DNA from: an uncultured virus (IMG/VR IMGVR_UViG_3300037195_000767)
Lineage: Duplodnaviria > Heunggongvirae > Uroviricota > Caudoviricetes
Length of the DNA: 64,000 nucleotides
Strand: one strand, 5' to 3'
Virus record (IMG/VR): IMGVR_UViG_3300037195_000767
A program made the position numbers and the translations under genes. Positions 5,101-61,940 of this stretch are shown one piece after another (the first letter of the stretch is position 1; the number at the start of each line of letters is the position of its first letter). The notes below the pieces were generated by a model. That model saw only the letters and a program-made list of their open reading frames with translations, was not told the origin of the DNA and did not search any database.

Positions 5101-5430
5101 ATAGATAGTGGTATAGGACATATATATACTAAACTTGTAAAAGATAATAAAAAAATTCATACTGAATTATTAAATAAACCAATTGATGAAGTTTTAAAAT
5201 TAAAAGAAGAAGAAATAAAAAATATACAATCAGATATAGATGATATTCCTACTAGTATATCAGAAGCTTTAGATAAAGGATTAAATCCTAATATATTATA
5301 TAAAGAACTTTTACTAGAAGAGGAATTAAAGAAAAAAGAAATACTTGAAAATGGTACAAATGGTATGGGTAATATATATGATCCACCTGAATCATCAGAT
5401 GACGAGTGTGATAGTGCGGATGGGTGTTAA
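2170..5430 (+). CDS. SprB-repeat-containing adhesin-like structural protein
   Basis: Repeats such as GSISLSATGGSAPYTYLWNTG...GTYSVQVTDINGC and GSINLYDPIGGLPPYTYSWTGP resemble Bacteroidota SprB repeats; charged helical C-terminus. Confidence 0.7.
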   Translation: MPLDKTVIAWSTTHWGSGNEPIIKVYFDAGPCVATTYPMPQGNGTPPLSVVTASSFGQQICNIQDITGDGYGSSFPGNTSTGTMNGAGNSTRNLISKTVSNDFTVSGYRTYSYELVDDPGQITAFDGDLGGGMTSGVPEGSAQVYTIDVWVPGSDIQRDTLGAMPVNVWQLRSAGWKMNQGYIDPYDAAITGHRLNGSVLVYNQWGGAASPILGVSTDMNEGVQVAINPINDPDNRFYGELLFPPIPLTTTWGSWPSTFDTIDFKNEYLVQGITPTIQPSDCSSANPTTGTLPLQMKGIACSDKYYYWLQAQSLASTNNTSIIDEFVQLMNIVGVHQAPGYVAHQVNQGITPQNNDVMPTLGGWAINSYQTSQAVNDPCTNITYTVSSVIVTQNNCNSGVNIGAIDITPTWGTSPYTILQTAGPGSLNVTNITGTHSLTNLADGSYSFLITDSDGCFTTDNIVLACTPCTLDVQGTVTNPLCVEDKGSYEILSTTTTAGSVTYTYELTGTMSISSGPGQLGTHTFYSLIPGNYVVYITEDNTGCTDQLSFSIVPPSIMVLSSIVSNVTMYGLSDGSISLSATGGSAPYTYLWNTGDTGPNLTGLTAGTYSVQVTDINGCIINDSFTITEPECNLLLGGSVTGSSQGTTATTTTATAILDVNSTTLANFDGRRILIDIPDGSGGFTYYEIWFDATGSTTAPTAVSGYTQIEVDISSETTVTGIASVLDTQIGLYIASTELTTTLASGSDVINITFTNTGTAALAHASTNGTTNTELNIILTQQAGNDGSINLYDPIGGLPPYTYSWTGPNNYTATTQDISDLSTGYYTVEVCDSLGCCESVSFYVMPGDCITSCDADTVVNYLNSILLRCGCEINNNHGGRNGEGDHSELRTSGVRTQFNTYNTSIKIGNTNYSSTTVTNNSPKSSISIPRPSKPLQSIIKSPVFKEKDVSIIKPLENIIKIVDMGFVKEFTKSLKNIIDSGIGHIYTKLVKDNKKIHTELLNKPIDEVLKLKEEEIKNIQSDIDDIPTSISEALDKGLNPNILYKELLLEEELKKKEILENGTNGMGNIYDPPESSDDECDSADGC

Positions 5431-28243: not shown

Positions 28244-31200
28244 ATGCCTCAAAACAAACCAATAAACTATACTAAGTTATTAAAGGGAATTAGTAATCAA
28301 ACTGATGAAATTGATCCAAATACTAATTTAGATGGTGATAATAGTATAACTGATAAATCTATAACTACTATAGATCAACCTCCTACTAAATTACCTAAAA
28401 TAAATTACGAAAGTCTTCTTCAGGGTACTAAGAAAAAAGCTAGACAGAATCAATTGCTGAAACCTATAAAAGTAGAAGGTTTTAATTTTGATGATTATGA
28501 TTTAGTTCCTGAGATACGTATGCATCAAGGTATGGAAGTAGTTAATCGTATACGTGCTAATAATCAAAGATGGTATACTCAATTAGGTAATTTCTTAGGT
28601 CAGTTTGTTATTGGTGAGATAGTCGGTGGTGTAATTTCAGGTGTAGGAGCTATAGGAGAAATACCTGATATGATTAGAGATGGTTTTTCAGGTTCGGGTC
28701 ATGTGGATTTTAATAATTCTATAATACGTGCTGGTAATAATATTAGTGAGTGGGCTAGAGATGCTATGCCTATTTATGAAGTTAATCCAAATGAAAGTTG
28801 GCAAATGGATGATTTTGGATGGTGGATGGGTAATGGTGTATCTGTTGCTTCTACTTTATCTATGTTAATTCCTGCTGTAGGTACAGTTAAAGCTGCTGGT
28901 TATATAGCTAGGATTACTAAATTAGCAGATAAAGTGGGAGACGCTACTAAGTATTATAGTAAAATGGCTATTGGTGCTGGTACTATGAGACATGCTGAGA
29001 ATGTTCGTGAAAGTTTTCAAGTAGCTAATGATGCTAGGTTGTTATCAGCTCAACAATTTGAAGATCAAGTAAACTTTGATAATTTTATAGGATCTGAATC
29101 AGGTCAGGAGTTTTTAAAATCTTATGGAATAGAAGCAGATAATCCTGAAGCTAAAAGATTAGCTGGTGAGTTTATAGCTGCTAAAGCTGGGTGGAGATCT
29201 TATATGATAAACTCTACTAATATTGTATTTGATTTAGTACAATTCGCTCCTTTATTAAGAGGATTTAAAGTAAAAACTAGAAATAGTTTTGGTAAACATC
29301 ATAAATTAAAGAAAGCTGCAGCTAAAGTTACAGGACAAAAAACTCCTGGTAAGTTTAATTGGGCTATGAGTAAACTTAATCCTCTGGTTTCTGCTACAGG
29401 TAGACAATTAACTGAGGGTATCGAAGAAGGTATTAACTTTATAGGTGGTCAAGAAGGTGCTTATTTAGCTAATAATATATTAGGATTAGAAAGTTCTAAT
29501 TTTAGTGATAGATTTGGTGAATATATGCAGGATGGTGAATTATGGGAATCTGCATTTTGGGGAGTACTTGGAGGTATAACTTTTGAAGGAGCCTCTGGTA
29601 GAGTTGGTAGAATGTTAGGATCTAATAAAAACGGACCTCATAGTTTAACAGGTAAAATAACTGAAATAAACCAAAGAGCTGCTTTTATTAGTAATTCTGC
29701 TGCAAAACTTAATGCTATACAAAATGCTGATCCTAATTATAAGGATATAACTGGTGAGTATAATTTTAAAGATATAACAGAAGAAAGAAGACAAGAATTA
29801 ATTTCAGAACTACAAACTGATTTAGCTTATAATTTAGGTATTAATGCTGCTGTTGCTGGTAATGTAGATATATTATTAGACCAATTAAAGAATCCAGAAT
29901 TTCAACAACAATTAGTTGATATGGGATTAACTACTCAAGAAGAAGTTGATTCTTTTATTAATGAAGCAGAACAAAATATACTAACTGCAGAAGATACATA
30001 TAAAAAACATATGGGTAGTTTTGTAACATCATCTGCTTCTCAAACAGTAAAAAATTCTCTTATTTCTAAAGGTATAAATTTAGATTTACAAAAGAAAAAG
30101 ATAGAAAAAATAAGAGGTAAACTTGAAGAAACTAATACAGAGTTAAAATTAAATGATACTACTTATGGAAATATAGAAGGTAATGCAGAATTAGCATTAA
30201 GAAAAGCAGCCTTAAAACGTAGTTTAGCTTCTTTTACAATCGAAGCTGCTAGAGCTGATGGTATCCAATATAAAACAGAAGCAGATAAATTAGCAGCTAC
30301 TGAGAGATATAAAAATATTTTAAATAAGATACAAAATGAACTTAATGATATAGATACACAAGTAAATGAATCTGGAGAATCATTACCTTCTGTTAAAAAT
30401 GTAGATGAACGTATAATAGATAATGCAGCAGCTATTGAGGGATATAAAATAGCTGAATCTGCTATAGCTGAAGATGTAGCTAAGATTAAAACACAAGAAG
30501 CTGTTAAAAAAGAAGCTGATTTACAAAAGGAACAAGAAGAAATTTTTAAACAACAAGGAATAGATCTAGCTACTGAATCTACTTCAGATAAGTCTCTTAA
30601 AATAAGTGAAGATTCGTCTCAAGCAGATCTTTTAGGAGTAATTAAAAATACATTACTTCCTATAGAGAATAAGCTTAGAGAGGGAGGTCAGACAGAAGCT
30701 GCTGATATTGTAAAAAATAAAATAGATGAACTTACTGATAGATTAACGTCTGATGAATCACGTAGAGAAGTAAAAATAGCTAAAGAAAATGTTAAAGGAG
30801 ATAATCAAACTAGTCCTAAAGAAAGAACTCAGGAAGAATTATTAGAGGAAGTAAATAAAAAAGATATGCCTCCAACTAATAATGATACTAATAAAGATAA
30901 AATAAACCCTGATCCAAATGAAACAGATACTGAAATAAATCCAGATCAACCTACAAATACTTTTAATGTAAATCGAACAAGTCCATCTCCTCAATTTCCA
31001 GACGAGCCAGAAGTTGGTGAGACTGAATTTTGGAATGCTTTTACACAATTAAATTTATCTAATACTGAAGATACAACTGCTGATTCTGAAACAATTGAAA
31101 CTATTAATAGAATTATAAATTTAAATCCAGGTGATAAATTATCTATTATACGTAATGATGAAGGACTTGAAATTGTAGATAATAAAGGTAATCATATTGG

Positions 31201-34200
31201 ATGGGTAAATGAAATATCTTCTAAACAAAATTTATTAAAGAAAGCTCAAGCTAGACTTATAACAGCAAGGACTAAATCTGAAAAAGCTAAAGAGGCTTCT
31301 AAAATAAAAGGATATGAAACTGAAATAAAAACATTAAAAAGATTACAAACTTTAGCAAAAGGGTCTCAACAAGGAGATGTAATAGTAGAAACAGAGGTTA
31401 CTAGTAAACTTAGAGGTACAATTATTAATAATATGGTTAATAATGAAAAAGTTTTTAGATCTATAAGTGAATCATTTGGTAAACCTATAAATTTATTTAT
31501 GAACCAAAAAGATACTGTTAAGCAATTAGAAGTAATTTATGATGCTGATGGTAACGCTTCTGTATATGATGGATTTATGGGATCTGGTATTGTTCCTCCT
31601 AAATTTGGAGCTGGTGTGGTATATACTATTATTTTAGATAATAATGGACAACCTATGGCTGTTCCTATATCTACTGGAAAAGTAGATATAAAACATGCTG
31701 AATTTTTATTTGATGCTTTTGTAGAATTAGCTAACCGTTTAAATAAAAGAGTTGGTGGTAAATATGTAAATGATTTACGTAATAAAGAGATAAAAGATCT
31801 TAAAGATATTATTAATGAAATAACATATCAAGGTAAAAAAGGAGGCATAGTTATACATAATGAGAAGATAGAAATACCTATGACTGATGGTAATGTACTT
31901 CAATTATTTTTTAGAGATAAAGGAAAAGGTAGTTTAAAAGGAGCTCCTGTATCAGGAATATTTAATATGAGAGTAGTAACTAAAGACGAATCTACTGGTA
32001 AAGTAAAACAAGTATTATCTGATTTTAATGCTTTTGGGTCTAAATCATTTTCAGATATTACTGAATTTGCTATAAAACAATTACAAGGACTTAGAAGACA
32101 AGTAAATAAAAAACGACTTGGATCTAAAGATAAATACCAGTCTCCTTTACATACAGATTTAAAATCTCCTAATTATCAGAATACAGGAGAAGAGTTTGAT
32201 AGTTATTATGATTATCTTACTACTGAAAAAGATAAACAAGGTTTACCTGTATTACGTTCTGATATAGGAGCTATTAGAAATGAAAGTGGTGATATAATAA
32301 CTCATTTTACAAATCCTAGAATTAGAGTAGGTAATATTGTTGGCGAATCTGTAGCTCCAAAAACTAAAAAAGCACCTGTAACTCCTGAAGCTGATAGGAT
32401 AGCAGCCTTAGATAAAACTTTAGTAGGTAAAGACAGAGAGTTTGTAGATCTAATGAGAGAAAAGGGTAAGGATCAGAAGATGATTGATCAAAAAATAAAA
32501 TCTTCAGCTAGAAATACTTCAGCAGGAAATAAATTACTAACAAGATATAAAGCTGAAGATACATTACGAAACCCAGAAGGAAAAACATTACCTGAATTAG
32601 TTTCTGCATATAGTTTATTATTTACAGATAATTATATACCAGCAAGAACAATTAACGATCTTTTATTTGATGACCCTGATTTAAGAACTAGGAACTTAGG
32701 TAATACAACTTCTCGTTATCCAGCTCAACAAGCTATTCTTAACTATGAAGCATGGGCTAAACAAGAAGCACCAGCAGCTCCAGTTGAACAAGATATAAGT
32801 AATGATCAACCACCTGAAGTATCTGCTAAAGATATAATAGAAGGATTAAAACAAGGTTTAGGTAAACAATTTATTACTCCAGATGATGTTAGAAATTTTG
32901 ATTTATCTGATGATGCTTTTGATAAATTATCTAAAAATGATTTTAATGATATAGATGATTTTCTAGATAGATCGGTTACACAAAATGATGTAACTCAAGG
33001 GTATACACAAGAAGATATAGATGCAGCTGAAGCTTGGTGGAAAAAGAATTTACCTAATGTTCCTTTTCAGGTAGTTGAAGGTTTAATTACAGGAGGTGGA
33101 CGTACTGCTTTTGGTAGATTCCATAATTCTATGGTATCTTTATCTAATATAGCTAAAGAAGGTACAGCTTATCATGAAGGATTTCATGCTGTATTTAATT
33201 TATATTTAAATCCTGTACAGAAACAAAAAATACTAGCAGAAGCTGTAGAAAGATATGGTGAACCAACTAATGAGGAGATTGATAAGATTATTAGACAATA
33301 TACTACGTATGGATTAGCAGATGTAACTTTCGATGACAAGGGTAGAGCTGAGCCTACCTATGAACCAGAATTAGAATTAACAGATTTAACTTTTGATGAT
33401 CAGGGCAGGCCTGAACCTACTTATGGTATGAGTAGAGAAAGAGCTAGAGAAATAGCTCTTGAAGAAAAGATGGCTGATGACTTCATGAATTATGTAATGA
33501 CTGGAGTAGAAGATAAAACTTGGAGAGGTAGAATTAGATCATTCTTTAGAAACATGTATAAATACATGAAGAATTTATTAGGTATAGGATCTAATATAGA
33601 TAAGTTATTTTATGATATAAATAATGCAAAGTTTACTTATAAAGCTGATCAGAAAGCTATAGATCATGCTAGGAGTATAACTTTGAATAGAAATGTAGAG
33701 GGTGAGAATATACCTGATACAACTATGCCTTCAGAAGGATTTACAGATTCTGAAGAGATGGTATTACTTAATAAATTACCAGGATTATATTATATAGTAG
33801 GCCAAAAACTTAATAATAAATCTATAGCTGAGGCAAATAAAACAGGTCAATCTCCTGATCCTATTAGTGATGATGCTATAAAAGCTGGTATTATGTCTGT
33901 TTTAGTAAGAAGATTTAATTCTCCTAAAACTGATTCTGTACATAAGACAAATATAACAAGAGTTATACAAGCTTTAAATAATGATGACTCTGATATATGG
34001 AGTAAAACTAAACAAATAATAGCTAAAGATTTTCAAACTGGTACAACTTTAGATCCTGAATTAGATAATATAGAATTTGATGATATATCTGAGATTAAAA
34101 GAAATTGGGATGATGGGTCTACATTTAATATAAATCAAAAAACAAGAGCTACTGGAGAAGTTAGATCTATTGTGAGAATGTCTCAAGATATTCAAGATAT

Positions 34201-37200
34201 TATAATAGATCCTGATGGAGGTATAGAATACGTTACAAATAAAGATGATTTCTTAGGATTTCCTAATTTCTTAAACTTTGATTCTGTATATCCTTATTTA
34301 TCTAACCATTTAGCAGGTATACAAAATGCTCAAGAGTTACTTGATAGATTAGAAACGTTATCTAAATTTGATTTAAGTTTTATGAAAATATGGGAACAAA
34401 TAAATCCTAAACATTTAAATCCTAGACAACAACAATTAAGTACTACAGAAAAACAAGTATTACAAGAAAAGAAAAGTTTATTATTAGCTAAATTTTTTGT
34501 AACATTTGCTAAACAATCTGCTACTTTTGATGTAGACTTAGTTAGTATACGTGGACAATCTGTAATTCATAGACCTAGTAGATCTAATAATAATGATACT
34601 AAGGTTATATTAGCTAATAAATGGATTTCTGCTATAGTAGATAAACATGCTAATAAAGAGATAGATATAGCTGATGTAATCAATGGTTTAAAACCTATTT
34701 CTTTAGGTATACTTAATGCTAATAATTTAGATAATATAGGAAAAAGAAAATTAGCTGTATCTATATCAAATTTATATTCTAAATTAGGTATAAATCTTAT
34801 GGAGAAAGGTGTTAATAAAATGGCTGATGCTATATATGATACTATAAAAGATATGGGTAATCCTATTTATATGATTAAATATGGTAGTATATCAGGTATA
34901 GTAAATAATGTATTTGTTAAACCTTTATCTTGGGTAGTAGATAATTTAGCTGATAATAATGTTTCTTTTGATCAGACTGGGTCTTTAAGAGAATTAGCTA
35001 ATGCTATAAAATTCTTTAAATATGATCTTATACAAAATACAAGTGTAAATGTTGTAGGTAAAAAACAATATACAATAACTGATTCTAATTTTATGTCAGA
35101 TTTCTTTGCTAAATATAATTCTGAAGATGAGTTACAAAGATTAGAATTAATAGATTTTATAGGAGAATTATTAGATGTACCTGGAATGAAAGATTCTAAT
35201 TGGTTACAACAAATGATTAGGTATACTGAAGATGGTAAAGCTCCTTTAAGAAATGAGAATGGCGATATTATACTTAATGATGAGTTCTTTTCTTCATTTA
35301 ATTATTCTTATGAAGATGGTATTAAAAATACAGATAGTAATGTTGGTATTAAATATCATAATATGGAAGATTCGGATTGGTATTTTATGACTTTAGCTAA
35401 ATTTCTTAATGGTGGTAAAAAAGGGTGGTCTAAATATTCACAACCTATTCCTGCTGATAGTAGTAATATTATATTTATAACAGCTCCTACTTATAAAAGT
35501 TCATTTTTATTTAATAAAAATGATAAAGGTGAAGTAACTAATACTAATACTTTAAATGTAAATTCTCCTTTAGGTTTATCTTTATTTAATTTAGTAGCTC
35601 AAGAAGTTAAATCTATACATCAAGCTCAAAGATATTTATTTGAAACTGATGATTTTGGTAATGTTAAATTAGAAGATGGTATGCCTATTATAAAAGAAGG
35701 TTTAGATATGAGAACATTACAAAAAGATTATCATTATAAACAGGGACCTAATGGAGAAAAAATATTATTTGATAAACAAGGTTATCCTGTAGGTGAGGTA
35801 TTTAGATTTAATTCTTTTCCAGAATTAATTAATCTTAATGTATTACAATCACATAAAAGTCCTGATGGTAAAGGATTTATAAAAAGTCAATCTTTAGGTG
35901 ATAAAGCTATACAAAGTATACAAATTTCAATACAGCAAAATTTAGAGACTGAGATGATTAATTTATCTGGAAATCCTATGTTTATGAACCAAATAGATAA
36001 ATTATGGGCTTTAGCTAAAACTAGATATATAACAAAAGAACATTTTATTATGAGTTTCTTGGGTAACCAAAAGGTAGCTATAACAGAATCTCAGAATTGG
36101 TTTAGTGGTAATATATCTGAATATTCAAGTAAACAAGATAGTAGTAAAAGAGCTAAACAAACTAATTCACCAGGTAATAAACAAGCTGGTATCTTTACTA
36201 ATCCTATGTTTGGTTTAGTAGTTATTAAAGATCTTGTATTATCTTCACCAGATATAACACAGATTGCTAATACTTTAAAAGAATCTTTTCTAAAAAGAAA
36301 AAATTATACTAAGGTAGAATCTAAATTTGATATAGATAATATAATTAATGGTACTCCTAGGAGTAGTTTAGAAAAAGATGTTCATAAAGTAGCTAGACAT
36401 TATATGGCTATTAATACTGGTGATGCTCAAGGTTATGTAACTTGGGATAGATACAAGAGACAGCTTAAAGATAATGGAGCTTGGAATGATAGAGTAGCGT
36501 TTATAGCTAATAAAATAGATAACGATCAACGTATATCTCCAGATGAATTAAATGCTATAATGCAGCCTTTTAAAGGTTTTTATTATAACCGTAAGATAGA
36601 TAATAGTTTAGGTAAATTGAGATCTAGACAAATAAAATATTCTACTATACCTCTTATATCTCAATTAGTAAAGGGAACAGATCTTGAAATATTAGCTGAT
36701 AAAATGAATGTATTAGGTATGGATGAGGTTGTATTTGAATCTGCTTCTAAAGTGGGTACTTTAAGTGTACATAAAATACATGATGAAAATGGTCGTATAA
36801 TACCTGATATATTTGACCAATTAGTTGAAGATGATAGACTATCTATAGAATTACTAGATAATGATCATTGGTATAAACAACAAGATGTACCTACTAAATT
36901 AGATTCAGTTACCCAAAAATTAGGTACTCAGATTAAAGATATAGTACTTACTAATTTATCTAATAATCCTATATATAAGGTAGCTTTTAGTAATGCTGAT
37001 ATGGATGGTAAACAATTACTTAAAAAGTATGCTGAATTAACTTCTGCTAATATAATAGAATCTTCTAATGAATTATTAGAAGAACTTGGAGCTAAAGTAG
37101 ATAAAGATGGAAATATAGTATTTGAAAATAATAAACAACTAAGAAAAATATTATTAAGAGAACTTGTTAAACGTGGAGCTACTGATAATTATATAAAAGC

Positions 37201-40200
37201 TGTTTTACCTAAACCTGGTACAGATCAGTTTACCTTACCTTTAGCTTTTTCTGGTATGAATAATAGATTTGAATCTTTATTATTATCTTTATTTACTACT
37301 AATGTAACTGAACAGAAATTTCCAGGATTCTCTTCTGTACAATTTTCAGGAGCTTTCTTTAGAACAAATAAAAAAGTAAGTCAGTTAACACAAGAGTATC
37401 AAGAAGATAAAATGCAAGGAGTTGAATGGGTTAAAGGCCATGATACTAGCCGAAGATTAAGATCTACTAGAGATTCTGAATCAGGTATTATCACTGCTGA
37501 GGTAGTTGTTTCTAGGCCTAATGCATATCATTTTGAAGATGGTAAACCTATTCCTATAAATGAAATGGATCCTCAGTTATTAGAAATGTTAGGATATCGT
37601 ATACCTACGGAAGCTAAACATTCTATGGTTGTGTTTAAAATAGTAGGATTTACACCTAGAGCTACTGGAGATATAATTATATTACCTGATGATATTATAG
37701 CACAAACTGGATCTGACTTTGATATTGATAAGATGCAAGTTATGATGTATAGTGCTAATTATAAAGGAGAAAAAATAAAGTATGATAATTCTAAACCAGC
37801 TTCTAAAAATAATAGAAAACAAAGAAATAATGCTATCTTAGATATATTTACTAGTATATTAAAAAATAAGCATCATTTGGCAGAGACGTTAGAAACTGGT
37901 AACTTTGACGATCTTAAAGATATAAGAAAAGAAATGGATGAAATAGATGGTATTACTGAGGCTTCTTTAGATATATCTTCTTTTTCAGGTCAAGATGAGA
38001 TACGTAAAAGAAATATGTCTGGTAGAGTCTTAAAAGGTATATCTGCTAGTATTAATAAATTTGGTGCTATTGCTCAGAATACAAAAATGTCGTTAATGAA
38101 TGGTATCAAATTTAAATATAAACTTATTGAAGTAGATTCTTCTACAGGTACAATTATAAAAAGAGATATAAAACAGCTTATAAAAAGATATGGGGCTGCA
38201 AATGTAGAAAGAGATGGAGATTTTGTTATTATTAATCATAGGACTTTAGGATGGACAGAAGATGGTTCTAATCTTAATGTTAATGGGGATCTAGTTCTTA
38301 AGCATTCAGCTCAAGGTATTACTGGTGCTGTAGATATTGGTAAAGATCCTACATTTAACTCATTTAATGTTAAATCTTTTACATATCCATTAGTTGGAGC
38401 AGCTACTTTACTTGGTATACCTTGGAAAAATATAGCTTGGTTTACAAAACAAGATATTGTTAAGGCGGTTCAAGATAAATACTATGAATCTAGAGGAGCT
38501 TTTGGTGAGAATACTCCATTATTTGAAATAATTAGATCTCTTAAAGAGGAATATCTTCATGTAGATAGTGAGAAAAATAGCGCTAATCATGGTACATTAT
38601 TTGGATTATTACCAGAAGCTACAAGACGTAAATTAGCTTCTATGATGTTCAATGCTAAAAAAGGTAAAATACCATGGGTTGATTTTTATAATGCTAGAGA
38701 AAAAGCAATAGGTATTGAAGATTATAAACCTTATAGTAAAGAAGAATTAAAAGATATTTATATGGCTAGTAAAAGTCTAGACATTCTATCAGCTGCTGAT
38801 AAACGTCAATTTTATAAAGACCAACTTCAGATATTGAATAATTTTACTTATATGAGAAATATAGGTAATCAAGTTAATGAAGGGGTGAGATTAGTAAAAG
38901 TAGATACATTAGGAGCGGGTCCTAGTATGGTATCTACTAGGAATTTTGAAAGATTATTAGATAAAATGGTTGATGATGAAAATACTTTATTAGTTGAACA
39001 TGAAGATGGCCAAGAAGGTATAGCAGCTTTATCTATATATCCTTCTTATTTTGGTAAATCTGTTGAATCTGTATACCCAACACTAAATACTATGTATGAA
39101 TATTCTAATATGCGTAGTGTAAAAACTATAGGTCATCATTTCTTAGAAGAAAGTCCTAGATTTAGAGGTATTATAGATAGTATTATGACTCATTTAAAAG
39201 GTATTGGATTTATGTATAATGATAAAGTAGAATCTATAACACGTAATTATATAACTTCTTATTTATTAAAAGACGCTTCTTTATTTAGTGATATGGGAGA
39301 TCAAGATATTAGAGATATATTAGGTATAAGTCCTATTAATGATAGAGAAACTACTTCATTAGCTAGAGATATATTAGATATACAAAAAGATTATCCAGGA
39401 TTATCTCAAGCTCAAAATCATATATTAACTTTTTTAAATCCAAAAACTGGTATAGAGGAAATAGAAAAAAATGGTGGTTTAGAATTAATAGATATATTAG
39501 ATATACCTAATGATCCTATTATACAAAATCAGATAAGTAGATCTTTACTTAGAATGTATAGAGGAACATCTTTAAATGCTGATGGTACCTTATTACCTGA
39601 AGATGTGAGAGAGAGATTAAGAGATGTAGCAATTAAAATAGCTAAATATGAGTTTTTTGTTTCTGGTTATAATTTTGGATTTAATTCTTTAACAGAACTT
39701 ATACCTACTGAAATGAAAGTTGAATTAGGATTAGGAGAACATCTTGAGAAAAAAATACAAGAATTTAGTATGTTAAGAAGTGCTGATGGTGAAAATATTG
39801 GTAATCTTGTACATAAAACTATTAGATCTAACTGGAAAAGACATGTAATGGTTCCTTTAGTTAAAAGACAAGTTGAGATTAGAGAAATGAAAGGACAACC
39901 TACAAGAGTTACTAAAAAAGGTACAGGTAATTGGACTCCTGGTAGAGATGGTATTATTGTTACTTCTACTAATTTAAGTAACGAACCTATGTCAGTACAA
40001 AATAGTGAATATGTATATGTTCCAATATATGTTATAGATAAATATAAAACTGCAAAAACAGGTGAGAAAGTTTATAGATTAGCATCTGATAATTTATATA
40101 TGAAAGTAGGTACAGATAAACAATTAGGATTACAATATTATATACCTGTACCTAAATTAGGTATACCTGGAAAAATGATTGAATTTGGAGATCAATCTTT

Positions 40201-42046
40201 ATTAGAAACTAATATACCTATAGTTTATAAAAGAAGATATATTCCTTATAATAATGAATTAGAAGCTAGAGATTATGTTATTAATATTTTAAATGGAGAT
40301 ACAAATAGGGCTGAAGTTATAGAAAGTATAAAGAAAGAAGATGAAGCTAAAGCTGATTCTAAAAGAGGACTAACAACTGATGTTTTAGTAGAGATGTCAA
40401 AGAAACAAAGAACAGGAGGTATGCAAACAGTACCAAAAGTAGTTCCAGTAGCTCCAATAGTTACAAAAGAAGGCGTGTCAGAAGTATTTAAAAAGAATTC
40501 TGAATTGTCAGAGATAGGTACAGAAGAACAATATTCTGCTTATTTAGATACTGTGTTTCCTGAGAGCAAAGTAAAAGATATTGTTTATCATATCTCAAGA
40601 AAAAAATTCGAGAAGTTTGATAAAAAGTTTCAAACTGTTGGAATGGCCGATATTCATGATGTAAAATTAGGTAGTGGCTTTTATTTTGCAGATATAAAAG
40701 AGGTTAAGAAATATGCAGCCTCTGTATCATTGTTATTTCCAGGAGAGAAACAAGAAATTGTTGAAACTGATTTTGGTCCTACAAAACCATTACCAAAAGG
40801 AGTGTTATACTCATCTCTATTAAATATTAAAAATCCACAACAAAAAACTGATATTGATGTAAGAGATAGAATTCTTGATAAGGATCCTGGAGTAGATGGA
40901 TTTGAACTTACTGATAATATTAGAAAGTCTAAAGAGTATGTAGTATTTGAACCAGAACAAATCCACATATTAGGTTCTAAACAAGATGTAAAAGGATTTA
41001 AAGAATTTGTATCTAAACCAGCAGTTCCAGTAGCTCCAGAAGTTACAAAAGCTTTAAAGTCTGATGTTATTTTACCAATTGGAACTTCTGGTAGTGGTAA
41101 ATCTACATGGATTAAAAGTATAAATAAAGGTAATGATTTTGTTGTAATATCTCCTGATGAGATGAGAATTGAATTTACTGGAGATATTAATGATAAAAGT
41201 AAAGATAATGAAATATATAAGGCCGTAATAGAAAGAACTATTAAAGCTATTGAAGAGGGTAAAAGAGTAATTATTGATAGTACAAATCTTAGAAAAGATA
41301 GGAGGAAACCATTTATTAAAGCTGTTAAAAAAGCTTTACCAGATACAAATATTCAATATAAACTAATGCCTTTAGATCCCGAATTAGCAAAACAAAGAAT
41401 TAAAGAGGATATCGCAGCAGGTATTGAGAGAGCTAATGTGACTGATAGCACAATAGATAGACACGCTAAGACTTATAAAGAAATGTTAAAGGATGTTAAA
41501 TCTGAAGATATTTCTGAATTTATAGAAGCTCCAGTAACTCCAGTAGACGCTCAAATTAAAAAAGTAACTTTAAAAGAACTTAGGAAACTAGCTAAAAAAA
41601 CAGACGGTCTTTCAGAAAATACTGAGGATTATTTCTATATAGATGATACTTTTAATAAAAAAAATAATAAAGCAATTCAAGTTAAAAAAGGAAGATTTGT
41701 TTTTGACATGACCGTTGATCGAAAAGGGGTCATAGAACCTTGGAAGGTTTCAGACTTAAGAGAAGATAAAAGCCTTTATTATAAAGAAACTGTTGATGGT
41801 GCAGGAAGAATACAAAAAAGTTCACCAAACTTTCCAATAACAGAAGCTGAAAAAGTATTAACTGAAATACAAAATCTTGCAAAACCTATAATAGCTCTAG
41901 AAACTCCAGTAACTACAGTTGATATAAATTCTATTAATAATTCTGAAGCTAATATAATGGATAATCAAGAAATGGTAAAAATGTATAAAGAATACCAAGC
42001 TGCAAAAAATAGAACTGATAATAATAGTGAAAAGAAATGCGATTAA
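28244..42046 (+). CDS. giant virion-packaged DNA-dependent RNA polymerase polyprotein
   Basis: GSDFDIDK catalytic loop (DFDIDK at 37715-37732), GYRIPT, NTGDAQGY, FESASKVG; zincin HEGFH at 33173; C-terminal ART-like and P-loop kinase domains. Confidence 0.92.
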   Translation: MPQNKPINYTKLLKGISNQTDEIDPNTNLDGDNSITDKSITTIDQPPTKLPKINYESLLQGTKKKARQNQLLKPIKVEGFNFDDYDLVPEIRMHQGMEVVNRIRANNQRWYTQLGNFLGQFVIGEIVGGVISGVGAIGEIPDMIRDGFSGSGHVDFNNSIIRAGNNISEWARDAMPIYEVNPNESWQMDDFGWWMGNGVSVASTLSMLIPAVGTVKAAGYIARITKLADKVGDATKYYSKMAIGAGTMRHAENVRESFQVANDARLLSAQQFEDQVNFDNFIGSESGQEFLKSYGIEADNPEAKRLAGEFIAAKAGWRSYMINSTNIVFDLVQFAPLLRGFKVKTRNSFGKHHKLKKAAAKVTGQKTPGKFNWAMSKLNPLVSATGRQLTEGIEEGINFIGGQEGAYLANNILGLESSNFSDRFGEYMQDGELWESAFWGVLGGITFEGASGRVGRMLGSNKNGPHSLTGKITEINQRAAFISNSAAKLNAIQNADPNYKDITGEYNFKDITEERRQELISELQTDLAYNLGINAAVAGNVDILLDQLKNPEFQQQLVDMGLTTQEEVDSFINEAEQNILTAEDTYKKHMGSFVTSSASQTVKNSLISKGINLDLQKKKIEKIRGKLEETNTELKLNDTTYGNIEGNAELALRKAALKRSLASFTIEAARADGIQYKTEADKLAATERYKNILNKIQNELNDIDTQVNESGESLPSVKNVDERIIDNAAAIEGYKIAESAIAEDVAKIKTQEAVKKEADLQKEQEEIFKQQGIDLATESTSDKSLKISEDSSQADLLGVIKNTLLPIENKLREGGQTEAADIVKNKIDELTDRLTSDESRREVKIAKENVKGDNQTSPKERTQEELLEEVNKKDMPPTNNDTNKDKINPDPNETDTEINPDQPTNTFNVNRTSPSPQFPDEPEVGETEFWNAFTQLNLSNTEDTTADSETIETINRIINLNPGDKLSIIRNDEGLEIVDNKGNHIGWVNEISSKQNLLKKAQARLITARTKSEKAKEASKIKGYETEIKTLKRLQTLAKGSQQGDVIVETEVTSKLRGTIINNMVNNEKVFRSISESFGKPINLFMNQKDTVKQLEVIYDADGNASVYDGFMGSGIVPPKFGAGVVYTIILDNNGQPMAVPISTGKVDIKHAEFLFDAFVELANRLNKRVGGKYVNDLRNKEIKDLKDIINEITYQGKKGGIVIHNEKIEIPMTDGNVLQLFFRDKGKGSLKGAPVSGIFNMRVVTKDESTGKVKQVLSDFNAFGSKSFSDITEFAIKQLQGLRRQVNKKRLGSKDKYQSPLHTDLKSPNYQNTGEEFDSYYDYLTTEKDKQGLPVLRSDIGAIRNESGDIITHFTNPRIRVGNIVGESVAPKTKKAPVTPEADRIAALDKTLVGKDREFVDLMREKGKDQKMIDQKIKSSARNTSAGNKLLTRYKAEDTLRNPEGKTLPELVSAYSLLFTDNYIPARTINDLLFDDPDLRTRNLGNTTSRYPAQQAILNYEAWAKQEAPAAPVEQDISNDQPPEVSAKDIIEGLKQGLGKQFITPDDVRNFDLSDDAFDKLSKNDFNDIDDFLDRSVTQNDVTQGYTQEDIDAAEAWWKKNLPNVPFQVVEGLITGGGRTAFGRFHNSMVSLSNIAKEGTAYHEGFHAVFNLYLNPVQKQKILAEAVERYGEPTNEEIDKIIRQYTTYGLADVTFDDKGRAEPTYEPELELTDLTFDDQGRPEPTYGMSRERAREIALEEKMADDFMNYVMTGVEDKTWRGRIRSFFRNMYKYMKNLLGIGSNIDKLFYDINNAKFTYKADQKAIDHARSITLNRNVEGENIPDTTMPSEGFTDSEEMVLLNKLPGLYYIVGQKLNNKSIAEANKTGQSPDPISDDAIKAGIMSVLVRRFNSPKTDSVHKTNITRVIQALNNDDSDIWSKTKQIIAKDFQTGTTLDPELDNIEFDDISEIKRNWDDGSTFNINQKTRATGEVRSIVRMSQDIQDIIIDPDGGIEYVTNKDDFLGFPNFLNFDSVYPYLSNHLAGIQNAQELLDRLETLSKFDLSFMKIWEQINPKHLNPRQQQLSTTEKQVLQEKKSLLLAKFFVTFAKQSATFDVDLVSIRGQSVIHRPSRSNNNDTKVILANKWISAIVDKHANKEIDIADVINGLKPISLGILNANNLDNIGKRKLAVSISNLYSKLGINLMEKGVNKMADAIYDTIKDMGNPIYMIKYGSISGIVNNVFVKPLSWVVDNLADNNVSFDQTGSLRELANAIKFFKYDLIQNTSVNVVGKKQYTITDSNFMSDFFAKYNSEDELQRLELIDFIGELLDVPGMKDSNWLQQMIRYTEDGKAPLRNENGDIILNDEFFSSFNYSYEDGIKNTDSNVGIKYHNMEDSDWYFMTLAKFLNGGKKGWSKYSQPIPADSSNIIFITAPTYKSSFLFNKNDKGEVTNTNTLNVNSPLGLSLFNLVAQEVKSIHQAQRYLFETDDFGNVKLEDGMPIIKEGLDMRTLQKDYHYKQGPNGEKILFDKQGYPVGEVFRFNSFPELINLNVLQSHKSPDGKGFIKSQSLGDKAIQSIQISIQQNLETEMINLSGNPMFMNQIDKLWALAKTRYITKEHFIMSFLGNQKVAITESQNWFSGNISEYSSKQDSSKRAKQTNSPGNKQAGIFTNPMFGLVVIKDLVLSSPDITQIANTLKESFLKRKNYTKVESKFDIDNIINGTPRSSLEKDVHKVARHYMAINTGDAQGYVTWDRYKRQLKDNGAWNDRVAFIANKIDNDQRISPDELNAIMQPFKGFYYNRKIDNSLGKLRSRQIKYSTIPLISQLVKGTDLEILADKMNVLGMDEVVFESASKVGTLSVHKIHDENGRIIPDIFDQLVEDDRLSIELLDNDHWYKQQDVPTKLDSVTQKLGTQIKDIVLTNLSNNPIYKVAFSNADMDGKQLLKKYAELTSANIIESSNELLEELGAKVDKDGNIVFENNKQLRKILLRELVKRGATDNYIKAVLPKPGTDQFTLPLAFSGMNNRFESLLLSLFTTNVTEQKFPGFSSVQFSGAFFRTNKKVSQLTQEYQEDKMQGVEWVKGHDTSRRLRSTRDSESGIITAEVVVSRPNAYHFEDGKPIPINEMDPQLLEMLGYRIPTEAKHSMVVFKIVGFTPRATGDIIILPDDIIAQTGSDFDIDKMQVMMYSANYKGEKIKYDNSKPASKNNRKQRNNAILDIFTSILKNKHHLAETLETGNFDDLKDIRKEMDEIDGITEASLDISSFSGQDEIRKRNMSGRVLKGISASINKFGAIAQNTKMSLMNGIKFKYKLIEVDSSTGTIIKRDIKQLIKRYGAANVERDGDFVIINHRTLGWTEDGSNLNVNGDLVLKHSAQGITGAVDIGKDPTFNSFNVKSFTYPLVGAATLLGIPWKNIAWFTKQDIVKAVQDKYYESRGAFGENTPLFEIIRSLKEEYLHVDSEKNSANHGTLFGLLPEATRRKLASMMFNAKKGKIPWVDFYNAREKAIGIEDYKPYSKEELKDIYMASKSLDILSAADKRQFYKDQLQILNNFTYMRNIGNQVNEGVRLVKVDTLGAGPSMVSTRNFERLLDKMVDDENTLLVEHEDGQEGIAALSIYPSYFGKSVESVYPTLNTMYEYSNMRSVKTIGHHFLEESPRFRGIIDSIMTHLKGIGFMYNDKVESITRNYITSYLLKDASLFSDMGDQDIRDILGISPINDRETTSLARDILDIQKDYPGLSQAQNHILTFLNPKTGIEEIEKNGGLELIDILDIPNDPIIQNQISRSLLRMYRGTSLNADGTLLPEDVRERLRDVAIKIAKYEFFVSGYNFGFNSLTELIPTEMKVELGLGEHLEKKIQEFSMLRSADGENIGNLVHKTIRSNWKRHVMVPLVKRQVEIREMKGQPTRVTKKGTGNWTPGRDGIIVTSTNLSNEPMSVQNSEYVYVPIYVIDKYKTAKTGEKVYRLASDNLYMKVGTDKQLGLQYYIPVPKLGIPGKMIEFGDQSLLETNIPIVYKRRYIPYNNELEARDYVINILNGDTNRAEVIESIKKEDEAKADSKRGLTTDVLVEMSKKQRTGGMQTVPKVVPVAPIVTKEGVSEVFKKNSELSEIGTEEQYSAYLDTVFPESKVKDIVYHISRKKFEKFDKKFQTVGMADIHDVKLGSGFYFADIKEVKKYAASVSLLFPGEKQEIVETDFGPTKPLPKGVLYSSLLNIKNPQQKTDIDVRDRILDKDPGVDGFELTDNIRKSKEYVVFEPEQIHILGSKQDVKGFKEFVSKPAVPVAPEVTKALKSDVILPIGTSGSGKSTWIKSINKGNDFVVISPDEMRIEFTGDINDKSKDNEIYKAVIERTIKAIEEGKRVIIDSTNLRKDRRKPFIKAVKKALPDTNIQYKLMPLDPELAKQRIKEDIAAGIERANVTDSTIDRHAKTYKEMLKDVKSEDISEFIEAPVTPVDAQIKKVTLKELRKLAKKTDGLSENTEDYFYIDDTFNKKNNKAIQVKKGRFVFDMTVDRKGVIEPWKVSDLREDKSLYYKETVDGAGRIQKSSPNFPITEAEKVLTEIQNLAKPIIALETPVTTVDINSINNSEANIMDNQEMVKMYKEYQAAKNRTDNNSEKKCD
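33313..33424 (+). repeat. degenerate in-frame tandem duplication (63-bp period)
   Basis: LADVTFDDKGRAEPTY / LTDLTFDDQGRPEPTY. Confidence 0.85.
40441..41051 (+). repeat. 29-bp direct repeat pair flanking the ART-like module
   Basis: agttccagtagctcca(at/ga)agttacaaaag at 40441-40469 and 41023-41051, 27/29 identical. Confidence 0.9.
41523..41919 (+). repeat. 22-bp direct repeat pair flanking an unknown module
   Basis: tagaagctccagtaactccagt (41523) vs tagaaactccagtaactacagt (41898), 20/22 identical. Confidence 0.85.
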
Positions 42047-46171: not shown

Positions 46172-46185
46172 AAAAAAGAAGATTA

Positions 46186-46231
46186 AAAGAAAAGGCGGGG
46201 ATAAGTGTATCAAAACTTATCCCCTTTTTTT
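46186..46231. terminator. intrinsic terminator, probably bidirectional, at the convergence of the two blocks
   Basis: 10-bp stem ggggataagt/acttatcccc followed by T7; A-rich tract upstream. Confidence 0.85.
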
Positions 46232-46264
46232 ACGACTAAGTATTATGAAAGACATTAACCTTTT

Positions 46265-51367: not shown

Positions 51368-51481
51368 ATCTTATTTTTTATGTTAAGAAACAGAAAAAGA
51401 GGAGTTTCGTCCTCTAGGAATGAACTTAATCGTCCTCTAGGCCTCTGTTATCTCCTCAGTTTCTGAATCAAGGTGGATCTT

Positions 51482-57466: not shown

Positions 57467-57693
57467 AATATTGAAGTTATTATATTTTTAATTTTACCTA
57501 ATACTTGTTTAAATACTTTTCTAGATTTATCAAATACTATTGGTGTTATCTTTTTTAATTTACTATTTTCTTTTAATGTTTTTTTAACACCGTTTTTTAA
57601 TTTTTCTTCGTCTTCACTTTCTGCTATTACTACTTGATCTAAATCTTTAAATTTATTATGCCATTCTTCATGATCGTGTGTTTTCTTTCCCAT
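57463..57693 (-). CDS. hypothetical protein
   Basis: ORF coupled to the helicase start. Confidence 0.5.
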   Translation of the reverse strand: MGKKTHDHEEWHNKFKDLDQVVIAESEDEEKLKNGVKKTLKENSKLKKITPIVFDKSRKVFKQVLGKIKNIITSIL

Positions 57694-57699
57694 ATTTAA

Positions 57700-57909
57700 T
57701 TATTTTTTATAAAATTCTATTATTAACGAATCTCTTCGATAACTATATTCTAAATATAATTTATCTAATTCATAATCTATATTATCTCTATGTTTTACTT
57801 GTTCATTAGTTAATCCTCTATTAACTCCACATGAAGATAATAATGTAATTAATGTAATTATTAATATCATTACTAATATTCCCATTGAATTTGCTCTTTT
57901 ATTTGTCAT
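57700..57909 (-). CDS. small putative lipoprotein
   Basis: Basic N-terminus, hydrophobic stretch, lipobox LSSC-G. Confidence 0.65.
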   Translation of the reverse strand: MTNKRANSMGILVMILIITLITLLSSCGVNRGLTNEQVKHRDNIDYELDKLYLEYSYRRDSLIIEFYKK

Positions 57910-57926
57910 ATTTTTTTAGTTTTTTA

Positions 57927-58205
57927 TTAAGCTTGAATACCACGTTCACCACCCCAATCTATCATTCTTAGAGGTGTTACTTTAGTTGTATTACAATGAT
58001 TACAGCATTGACCTTTCTTTATAGGTTCTGCATTATTACCTCCTTTATAATATACTTCACCATCTTTTGTTTTCTCTTCATCTAATGGTTTTTCACATAA
58101 ACAACATATACCTTTATATATATTTTTATCTATTGAGTTTTCTATTTGTGTAAGTATATACATACCTGATACAAATCCAATTCCAAACATTACTATTTCT
58201 AACAT
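57927..58205 (-). CDS. membrane-anchored Zn-finger-like protein
   Basis: N-terminal TM; CCLC...NNAEP...CCNHCN. Confidence 0.55.
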   Translation of the reverse strand: MLEIVMFGIGFVSGMYILTQIENSIDKNIYKGICCLCEKPLDEEKTKDGEVYYKGGNNAEPIKKGQCCNHCNTTKVTPLRMIDWGGERGIQA

Positions 58206-58220
58206 ATTATTTTATTTTAT

Positions 58221-58366
58221 GGGAGTGAGAGGGGGGAAAGAGAATCTGTTGTTATAAACTGATTTCTTGTTCGATTTAACGATCTCTAAATCCTTGATAT
58301 AACTGTCGTCTCTTATTATACATGATTCTATTACATAGAATGTGTCACCCCGCAATCATCTATCCC
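58221..58366. ncRNA. candidate structured non-coding RNA
   Basis: Nested complementary blocks spanning almost the whole intergenic region (see findings). Confidence 0.5.
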
Positions 58367-58373
58367 TTGTTTA

Positions 58374-60287
58374 TTATTTACACCACTCTTGCGTTGTAGT
58401 GCCATCTACTACCATATCTACTGATTGACATATCTCTTTTCCTGCAGATACCATCAGATCCTCTTGGATCAACTTCCATTCATCTATGAAATCATCTCTT
58501 ACTTCACACGTTATCTCATCATGTACTTGAGATACTATTCTTACTTTATCGTATAAGTTATCTTTTGAGATTTTTTCTGATATTAAAGCCAATGCTAATT
58601 TAATCATATCAGCTCCTGACCCTTGAATGGGAGTATTCATTGAAGCTCTTTCTATTTCACCTAGTCTTTTAAATTTAGTTCCAGGATCCATTGCATTCAA
58701 CATACCCCAGTCTTCAAACCATCTAACTCTTCTAAACGGTTTAAATGTTTTGATATGTCCATTCTTTTTACCATAATTACCTAATGCATGTAAGAATTTC
58801 TTTATACCAGGTAACTCTTCAAAATATTTATCAATGAAGTGCTTTGCATCTGTCTGTGGTATATCTAATGTATTAGCTAACGAAGTATATTGCATACCAT
58901 ATGCTAAACCAAAGTTAATAGTTTTAGCTACATCTCTATATGATTTACCTCTTAAAAATTCAGGTTTGTCTTTAACTTCAGACATATCTATATCAAATAC
59001 TAAAGATGCAACTTTACCATGAACGTCCTCTCCATTTTTAAATGCTTGAATCCATGTTGGATCTTTCGACCCTTCAGCTATTAATCTTAACTCCTGTCCT
59101 GAGTAATCCATAGTTACTAGTTTCCATCCTTTCTCAGCATGAAAACAATTTCTATATCTATTATCAGCTGGTATATTCTGCATATTTGGGTAGTTCATGT
59201 AACTATATTTACCACGTTGACCTGAAGACACACGACCAGTATTTAATATTTGCCAAAATACAGTATGTACTCTATTACTATTCTTGTTTAAATAATTAAC
59301 AAAGTCTTTTCCATACGTAGTCATTAACTTAGTTTTCTTTCTATAATCTATTATAGTTTTAATTAATGTATGACTACGTTGTCTTTTATATAATTCTTTC
59401 ATACTAGTATTTTCTAGACTTGGATCCAGTTTCTGCAGAACTTTTGTTACTTGTGACGGTGAAGACCATTTAACTCCTACTTCCCTTTCTTTACCGCCAA
59501 ACATATCTAACTGAATACCAGGTAGTTTAAAGCATTCTAACTTACTTTCAGATAATAATATATTATCTAAATTTTCTCCTAATTTAATAGATTCATCTTC
59601 AGCTTCTTTTGCTAAATTTAACCATGATTGTTTGTTAAATCCTAATCCATTATATTCTATTTCAGAAAATGCTATACATGCTCTATTCTCTAAATTTAAA
59701 ACTCTTTCAAGACCCAATTTATGAATCTTATCCATTTGTTTTTTCATTATAGGTATTAAATATTCTACATCTTTAGCACCGTAAGATATTTGTTTTAAAG
59801 TATATGGATTACCATCAGTAATTTTACTAAACTCTGATCTAGTTTCTTTTTCCATTTCTATATTTAAATATCTTTTAAGTATTTTATCTAAACTATATCC
59901 ATATCCTAGTTTACCACAATTTAATACTACTTCTGCTAACATAGTATCATATATATTTTGTGTTCTAAATCCAAATGAACTTAATAAAAACTTGTAATCA
60001 AATTTAGCATTTTGGAATAATTTTACATAACTCCTAGATTCAAATATAGGACGAAGGATTTCAATATTAACGTTTCTAGTATCTATTACAAACTGAACGT
60101 CTTCATCTCCCATTTGCAACATGATCACTTTATTTTTATGCCAGTCAACACCATCAGTTTCTGTATCTACCGCTATATATGTTAATATAGAACAGTAATC
60201 AAATACTTCATCTATAGTAGTAATTTCAATATCACTATGTATTAAACTATCATCTAATGTTAAATTGTTACTCACTATTTTTATCAT
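58374..60287 (-). CDS. polA: family A DNA polymerase with 3'-5' exonuclease
   Basis: VDTET, QNAKFD, TGRVSS, PNMQNIP, DYSGQELR, RDVAKTINFGLAYG, NTPIQGSGAD, VHDE. Confidence 0.96.
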   Translation of the reverse strand: MIKIVSNNLTLDDSLIHSDIEITTIDEVFDYCSILTYIAVDTETDGVDWHKNKVIMLQMGDEDVQFVIDTRNVNIEILRPIFESRSYVKLFQNAKFDYKFLLSSFGFRTQNIYDTMLAEVVLNCGKLGYGYSLDKILKRYLNIEMEKETRSEFSKITDGNPYTLKQISYGAKDVEYLIPIMKKQMDKIHKLGLERVLNLENRACIAFSEIEYNGLGFNKQSWLNLAKEAEDESIKLGENLDNILLSESKLECFKLPGIQLDMFGGKEREVGVKWSSPSQVTKVLQKLDPSLENTSMKELYKRQRSHTLIKTIIDYRKKTKLMTTYGKDFVNYLNKNSNRVHTVFWQILNTGRVSSGQRGKYSYMNYPNMQNIPADNRYRNCFHAEKGWKLVTMDYSGQELRLIAEGSKDPTWIQAFKNGEDVHGKVASLVFDIDMSEVKDKPEFLRGKSYRDVAKTINFGLAYGMQYTSLANTLDIPQTDAKHFIDKYFEELPGIKKFLHALGNYGKKNGHIKTFKPFRRVRWFEDWGMLNAMDPGTKFKRLGEIERASMNTPIQGSGADMIKLALALISEKISKDNLYDKVRIVSQVHDEITCEVRDDFIDEWKLIQEDLMVSAGKEICQSVDMVVDGTTTQEWCK

Positions 60288-60789: not shown

Positions 60790-60805
60790 GTTTATAATTT
60801 TTAAT

Positions 60806-60835
60806 AAAAAAACAGGACAAATAAGTGCCCTGTTT
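60806..60835 (-). terminator. intrinsic terminator
   Basis: Minus strand AAACAGGGCA-cuuauu-UGUCCUGUUUUUUU; the G-U pair supports this strand. Confidence 0.7.
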
Positions 60836-60876
60836 CTTAATAAATAATAACTAACTAAACTTATAACTAAATCTGC

Positions 60877-61756: not shown

Positions 61757-61860
61757 CTTTTTCAATTTTATAATAAGCATATATTCCTGTCATCATTCCT
61801 GCCATATATACTAGTAAGTATGTTAATATTTCCATTTACTTATTTTTAGTTATTAATAAT

Positions 61861-61917
61861 AAAAGAATAAAAGAATGGCACACTCATATTTGTCGTAATA
61901 CTTGTATACCATTCTTT
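61861..61917 (-). terminator. long hairpin, terminator or processing site
   Basis: AAAGAAUGGUAUAC...GUGUGCCAUUCUUU 14-bp stem with two U-G pairs, followed by a U-rich tail. Confidence 0.6.
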
Positions 61918-61940
61918 ATTCCCAACACACAACAAGAAAT

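Follow-up and report, generated by a model that had tools for sequence, protein, structure and literature searches.

Between the family A DNA polymerase gene polA and the next reading frame of a marine phage lies a spacer of 168 nt (58206-58373) that is occupied by an element of 146 nt, and the question is whether this element is the gene of a small RNA, a signal within a longer transcript, or a fold of no consequence. The window, i.e., the whole stretch of DNA that was analysed, comprises 64,000 nt and belongs to a contig of 86,802 bases that is 94% complete. Judged from its genes, the source phage is crAss-like: a domain search found the Crassvirus muzzle domain PF25731 in the window, the best annotated relatives of polA are largely crAss-like phages (~29% identity), and a DFDID motif is present at residue 3158 of a 4600-aa open reading frame. 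The sequencing runs that contain the stretch are DNA runs from marine or seawater metagenomes. An identical copy of the phage region within an archaeal genome bin (L091 / G009) is most likely a mis-binned virus contig. The replication arm, reaching from 46265 to 64722 with all genes on the minus strand, encodes a primase, a Sak4-like ATPase, DnaB, a methyltransferase, a helicase, and PolA. The features that define the setting are as follows.

28244-42046: virion polymerase-type protein of 4600 aa with the DFDID motif and C-terminal ADP-ribosyltransferase-like (weak) and kinase/AAA domains

57927-58205, minus strand: 92-aa open reading frame downstream of the element, function unassigned, weak match to phrog_26998

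58206-58220, minus strand: A-rich leader of 15 nt in the sequence, left free before the next start codon

58221-58366, leaning to the minus (operon) strand: structured non-coding module of 146 nt, from folding and strain comparison

58374-60287, minus strand: polA, with PF00476 and PF01612, its stop codon 7 nt before the module

Read on the minus strand, the element thus starts 7 nt past the polA stop codon and ends 15 nt short of the next ATG, in agreement with the original remark that it fills the intergenic space. It is present as a single copy in the 86.8-kb contig.

Seven helices had been proposed from the letters alone, and all of them are found (58221-24/58363-66, the 58226-28/58355-58 region, a G-run with 58348-51, 58238-43/58309-14, 58251-56/58298-303, 58261-65/58288-92, and 58271-73/58280-82); the plus-strand MFE structure (-35.7 kcal/mol) recovers every one, and the proposed side hairpin is likewise present at 58320-58346. 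The overall shape has to be redrawn. Instead of a rod with a large asymmetric bubble, a closing stem broken by bulges leads to a three-way junction that carries the side hairpin and a long arm of 6-, 6-, 5-, and 3-bp helices with internal loops between them. At the junction, 2-3 nt are unpaired on one side, while the conserved hairpin occupies the other. The scaffold comprises 67 paired and 43 unpaired positions, and the longest uninterrupted helix measures 7 bp. The individual parts, to which no strand is assigned, are the following.

58221-58236: first arm of the interrupted closing stem, partner 58348-58366, from the MFE structure, identical in strain L005

58238-58243: helix arm at the base of the long arm, partner 58309-58314, from pair probabilities and the hand-drawn structure

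58244-58251: one side of the 4x4 internal loop with a 2-nt bulge, reading C-AACA-G-AT on the minus strand, common to L005, L014, and L150

58251-58256: helix arm, partner 58298-58303, with a double substitution (58256/58298) and a double deletion (58253/58301) in L005

58261-58292: distal hairpin, in other strains replaced by unrelated sequence of differing lengths

58303-58308: opposite side of the 4x4 internal loop, reading C-GACA-G on the minus strand, invariant in four aligned sequences

58320-58346: side hairpin at the three-way junction, pair probability 0.92-0.98, with a conserved stem, a loop that differs or is longer in other strains, and a variable bulge base (58324)

58348-58366: second arm of the closing stem, with strain changes at the unpaired positions 58352 and 58362

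The two strands of the 4x4 internal loop are near direct repeats. No reading frame across the element is conserved between strains; a small protein-coding gene was considered, and the 47-codon TTG frame on the minus strand that would represent it is broken in L005.

Folding energy by itself is weak evidence, and it is the comparative evidence that lifts the element above chance. Comparison with shuffled sequences, the check that had been suggested, places the isolated element only marginally beyond chance on the plus strand (z -1.78; 7 of 200 shuffles as good) and gives a weak result on the minus strand (z -0.60; 54 of 200); with flanks, the values are -1.09 and -1.58, respectively. Among 146-nt windows sampled from the same arm, 4 of 30 had a z of -1.7 or lower on the plus strand, and none of the 30 reached -35.7 kcal/mol. 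In the window, the long arm pairs with probabilities of 0.89-0.95 on the minus strand against 0.31-0.60 on the plus strand, a point in favour of the minus strand.

The comparison of close strains draws on two full sequences together with contig fragments, the strain contigs being taken from 7 DNA runs (X4, X12, X13, X15, X16, X17, and X18) and mostly fragmentary. The polA proteins of strains L002 and L005 are 91-93% identical to that of the window (L005, 93% of amino acids), and their elements combine an almost unchanged outer scaffold with a longer loop in the side hairpin and an unrelated distal hairpin; among the fragments from X15, at least three more forms differ in the lengths of their loops. 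In the comparison with L005, all 72 modelled pair cells are retained (36 pairs in two sequences). One pair, 58256/58298, is doubly substituted from A-U to G-C, and both arms of this helix have lost one base at matching positions, 58253 and 58301. Apart from the two regions that hold the terminal loops, 11 strain differences were counted, six of which fall on unpaired positions and four make up the two compensated couples; the remaining one (58243) breaks a pair at a helix end. The covariation shuffle control gave 250 of 500, a control that an alignment of two rows cannot pass. As a whole, the L005 counterpart folds with a z of -0.5, and its thermodynamic model assigns a probability of 0.00 to the compensated helix and the helix above it because a local hairpin competes; this counts against an RNA that acts through its fold.

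Compensating changes can also arise when template switching in inverted repeats acts without selection, and the element might accordingly be a palindromic filler, neutral or selfish, that stays symmetrical in this way. The weak z-scores, the very variable distal part, and the occurrence of the whole element in one species-level group only of IMG/VR (2 contigs per search) are in line with such an origin. However, bulges and internal loops have been retained rather than repaired, each genome holds a single copy, and between the window and L005 the outer scaffold is more conserved than the fourfold sites of polA, 85 of 96 of which are identical; we regard a filler as very improbable. Conservation of the scaffold, compensating changes, restriction of variation to the loops, and the absence of a conserved reading frame therefore uphold the structured and non-coding character that had been proposed, while the discrete transcript that was part of the same proposal stays a prediction.

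On which strand the element would act had been left ambiguous, and this stands, as the indicators point both ways; we take the minus strand to be about twice as likely as the plus strand. The minus strand is that of the operon, and in the relative L014 the copy belongs to an array that opens with a module ending in a U-run on the sense strand. The alternative is an antisense small RNA on the plus strand, directed toward the polA stop, that gains extra G-U pairs and ends in the U-rich run behind 58366. The MFE is lower on this strand in three of four sequences, G-U pairs number 16 on the antisense versus 4 on the sense strand in four non-independent sequences (which counts against the minus strand), and the two-sequence consensus folds are better (-27.8 vs. 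-18.6 and -26.8 vs. -22.0). A weak hint in the same direction comes from one X15 contig with a change at 58256 and a missing row for 58298, since the pair would be G-U on the plus strand. However, the antisense strand is richer in U, so more G-U pairs are expected there; the z-scores of the four sequences do not separate the strands, and the energies of the hand-drawn structure are close (-27.0 and -25.9). The promoter motif of Bacteroidota, TAnnTTTG, is absent from the plus strand between 54837 and 60510, and no plus-strand sigma-70 site was found within 200 nt upstream of the element; the array context of the L014 copy also speaks for the sense strand. A search for an antisense target found no match longer than 13 nt elsewhere in the contig. 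Taken on its own, a functional plus-strand RNA is rather unlikely.

The absence of a U-tract that had been noted holds for the minus strand, the tail of which is A-rich, and fails for the plus strand, where 10 of the 13 bases behind 58366 are T. These follow a stem of only 4 bp, and a terminator scan found no site in 57800-58800, so that an intrinsic terminator was dismissed. No promoter-like site was found within 58206-58373.

Catalogued RNAs offer no counterpart. The Rfam covariance-model scan that had been suggested as a check yielded no family for the element, and neither an ARAGORN call nor an Rfam match supports a tRNA, a tmRNA, or a catalogued riboswitch or ribozyme. Resemblances seen by eye to SRP RNA, to the hairpin and twister ribozymes, and to group I intron core elements, kink-turns, and ribosomal-protein sites were set aside for wrong order or missing partners, without Rfam support. 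The original prediction had loosely likened the element to 6S-type decoys of RNA polymerase. Like 6S RNA (SsrS), it is about 150 nt long, with paired ends and interrupted helices. 6S RNA has a single-stranded central bubble between the closing stem and the terminal loop (PMC4064990). In contrast, the element has a three-way junction and no central bubble that is single-stranded on both sides, because the junction has 2-3 free bases on one side and the conserved hairpin on the other. Rfam 6S models found nothing to E 10 in 57500-59200 and nothing at gathering score in the window, and the distant relatives that share the internal loop (L014 and L150, see below) have neither junction, side arm, nor bubble. 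The likeness to 6S RNA does not survive these comparisons, and a decoy of this kind is barely credible.

Among phage-borne cassettes, the PeSLs of the T4-type phages RB49 and phi1 are repeated sequences of ~100 bp with a sigma-70 promoter and a terminator hairpin (PMC2839356). As far as that account describes them, they resemble the element as intergenic stem-loops in a variable early region, with module exchange and stems of G-runs and C-runs, but the element differs in being single-copy, in lacking promoter and terminator calls, and in having siblings unrelated in sequence; its single copy and the lack of a promoter-like site in 58206-58373 led to rejection of this candidate. The UG27 reverse-transcriptase ncRNA arrays of gut phages (PMC9226505; 10.64898/2026.09.22.753630), which need a reverse transcriptase, are likewise variable arrays of self-closed structured RNAs, some of them in Crassvirales. 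Unlike the arrays so described, the modules considered here do not share one fold. A retron or UG27 ncRNA was rejected, as RVT_1 (PF00078) occurs in none of 6 records (the phage's own contig, 94% complete, and 5 relatives), a search in which very divergent reverse transcriptases could be missed.

No description of the element was found in the literature. The searched supplement of a set of 10,006 viral candidates (PMC10690425) holds no match; the alignments of that work lie outside the search, so the element may be listed there. A check of PMC8375218 gave nothing relevant to it. BLAST against 50,697 phage records returned only short chance matches for the element and none for the module of L014, and a DNA search of 5 related virus records returned matches of 14-23 bases only. 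The covariance model R1, built from two sequences (the window and L005), found only its two inputs among 55 sources and, in a search of 4 genomes, nothing beyond the contig of this phage; a sample of 121 genomes from the family to which G006 (L106, a Zeaxanthinibacter record) belongs gave no match, which is a weak test of one family. The element is likely real, uncatalogued, and narrow in its distribution.

In 7 of 9 other, more distant lineages, whose polA is 57-71% identical, a non-coding cassette follows polA directly (L012, L013, L014, L015, L016, L021, and L035); in L017, the cassettes come one 48-aa open reading frame further on, and L020 has only a 37-nt spacer and no module. Sense-strand z-values reach -2 or lower in 6 of the 8 cassette-bearing spacers. 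The cassettes show no sequence relationship to the element of the window or, except for L021 and L035, to one another; an Rfam scan of 10 related loci gave no cassette match and four chance-level hits elsewhere. Since, besides L014, seven relatives carry unrelated cassettes at this site or one small gene further on and one carries none, the element is best described as a swappable accessory module. Sense-strand U-runs close the sibling modules of L012, L015, L016, and L021 and the first module of L014.

One part of the fold recurs beyond the close strains. The second module of L014 (polA 62%), found also in L150, is a rod lacking side arm and junction that contains the same 4x4 loop in the same orientation to polA, with sense-strand z-values of -3.6 and -3.2. 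The shared loop consists of C-GACA-G opposite C-RACA-G; in L014 and L150, it is placed between two helices and has C-GACA-G opposite C-AACA-G, the latter followed by AY. It was noticed after the fact, and the search patterns were built from sequences of the window clade. A scan of IMG/VR with the loop pattern gave 44 stretches, in three of which (the window, L014, and L150 copies) each of the two flanking helices measures 5 bp or more, while the G-variant gave 33 stretches (11 distinct), with helices of 4 and 6 bp only in the L005 type. As a null, 120 of about 4000 stretches matching a loose pattern were taken, and helices of 4/5 bp occurred in 4 and of 5/5 bp in 2 of the 120. Since the patterns derive from these very sequences, the scans indicate that the motif with its helices is confined to the clade and do not prove homology. 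R1 misses L014 and L150, and the loop may therefore be convergent or due to chance; a MAFFT alignment of all four sequences did not agree with the structure.

Further structured stretches were observed in the window, all on the minus strand where a strand is given. A long interrupted hairpin at 63924-64035 (z -5.3) has a homolog in L012 that lies in a spacer behind polA (about 5097-5165), the internal loops being conserved. Another long hairpin at 61781-61940 (z -4.1), with G-U pairs on the minus strand and a U-run, has a core common to variants in L008, L012, and L226. The structured spacer 51368-51481, with a 12-nt repeat, several GGA motifs, and a U-run behind, is nearly identical in G001 (L223 15503-15616), though polA is only 71% identical there. 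Terminator-like hairpins are located at 46172-46254, where the two gene arms meet, and at 60790-60876. Past the end of the window, positions 64723-66640 of the phage's own contig (G000) form a region of ~1.9 kb with few open reading frames at the early/late switch, stretches of which are conserved in G001 and G002. In related phages, several self-closed modules are arrayed behind polA (L035 4361-4975, L021 4361-4645, and L155 839-929). One insert, marked by a 7-nt anticodon-loop-like word that is repeated, occurs in L035 and at another site in L155 and is absent from L021. Modules thus change places between spacers, as this insert and the L012 homolog of 63924-64035 show. L160, L161, L166, and L167 share, at about 1270-1370, a module family of ~75 nt with a closing stem, a strongly conserved inner sequence, and no U-run; the L160/L161 module has no Rfam match.

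For what such a module might do, the Cellulophaga crAss-like phage phi14:2 provides the nearest setting. In this phage, the virion polymerase is responsible for transcription of the early arm. The intergenic RNAs g004-g005 and g005-g006 are abundant, sense-oriented, and persistent, with unknown function; the gene-free stretch 2905-4601 is described as a long non-coding RNA, also of unknown function (10.1101/2020.03.07.982082). Within this stretch (L232, NC_021806), ARAGORN calls a tmRNA at 4031-4500, which is absent from the Rfam gathering scan. Like these early RNAs, the element lies in a gene-free spacer of the early/replication arm of a crAss-like phage, whereas the phi14:2 spacers are far longer, lie at the head of the arm, and in one case hold the tmRNA; no match to the element was found in phi14:2 positions 1-45000. 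In two related crAss-like phages, the early arm contains GOLLD RNA (RF02032, 207-212 bits; L227 1859-2244 and L230 10186-10573) amid unannotated folded spacers. GOLLD is much larger, catalogued, and without similarity to the element, and its place in the early arm means that stand-alone RNAs do occupy such spacers.

On the basis of the persistent early RNAs of phi14:2, the tmRNA, and GOLLD in two relatives, an accessory RNA is the explanation that we tentatively favour, at somewhat less than even confidence: a swappable non-coding module on the minus-strand early transcript, closed upon itself and binding a protein via the 4x4 loop. By analogy with phi14:2, the virion RNA polymerase would transcribe the module together with polA as it reads the early arm. 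It would fold on itself with both ends paired, and the stable RNA would survive after the flanking mRNA has been trimmed. The conserved 4x4 internal loop would then bind a protein, and the effect may be that of a titrating agent or decoy on an RNA-binding protein of host or phage. Optional, exchangeable, and self-closed, with free terminal loops and one fixed internal loop, the module resembles a scaffold on which a binding site is displayed.

The main rival, a possibility that we hold for doubtful though worth weighing, is punctuation of the early transcript in cis. The element would pause the polymerase, mark a cut site, or block 3' exonucleases and so tune polA mRNA against the downstream genes, without a separate life as an RNA. 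Its close spacing to both neighbours, 7 nt from the polA stop and 15 nt from the following ATG, fits such a role, and many sibling modules have the terminator-like sense-strand U-run. However, the module of the window has neither a sense-strand U-tract nor a terminator call, and a phage without a module behind polA exists (L020). An RNase III site of the T7 type takes about two turns of near-continuous helix, for which the longest uninterrupted helix of 7 bp is short. A plain barrier, moreover, needs no invariant internal loop common to different scaffolds.

Function could also reside in the DNA, with a single-stranded hairpin or the direct-repeat pair serving as a virion-polymerase promoter, a priming site, or a recombination point. 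The virion polymerase of phi14:2 works on templates that are single-stranded or denatured, and the early transcripts of that phage are described as having no common upstream motif (10.1101/2020.03.07.982082); the window itself encodes the DFDID protein, and the loop strands are near direct repeats. Yet DNA-level folding is weak (z -1.39 and -0.18) and the 86.8-kb contig contains only one copy. Moreover, the loops, which are usually fixed in single-stranded hairpin promoters, are the most variable part of the element. We consider a role of this kind improbable.

Returning to the accessory RNA, a bolder version is that the early arm of marine crAss-like phages houses a library of small RNA genes that can be exchanged and that the module is a decoy, whose symmetric GACA/RACA loop, presented on different scaffolds, titrates a dimeric RNA-binding or anti-phage protein of the host; we consider this unlikely, though not far-fetched. 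If true, such a decoy would be the RNA counterpart of the small anti-defence reading frames that fill the same region. The case adds a module that lacks a U-tail and an internal-loop motif that recurs on two scaffolds. crAss-like phages are abundant, and for the role of early ncRNAs such as those seen in phi14:2, an invariant internal loop on two scaffolds, with natural loop-swap variants as controls, provides a small and defined test case. If the element only punctuates a transcript, it would be a minor regulatory feature; binding to a host factor would make it a new type of phage RNA effector.
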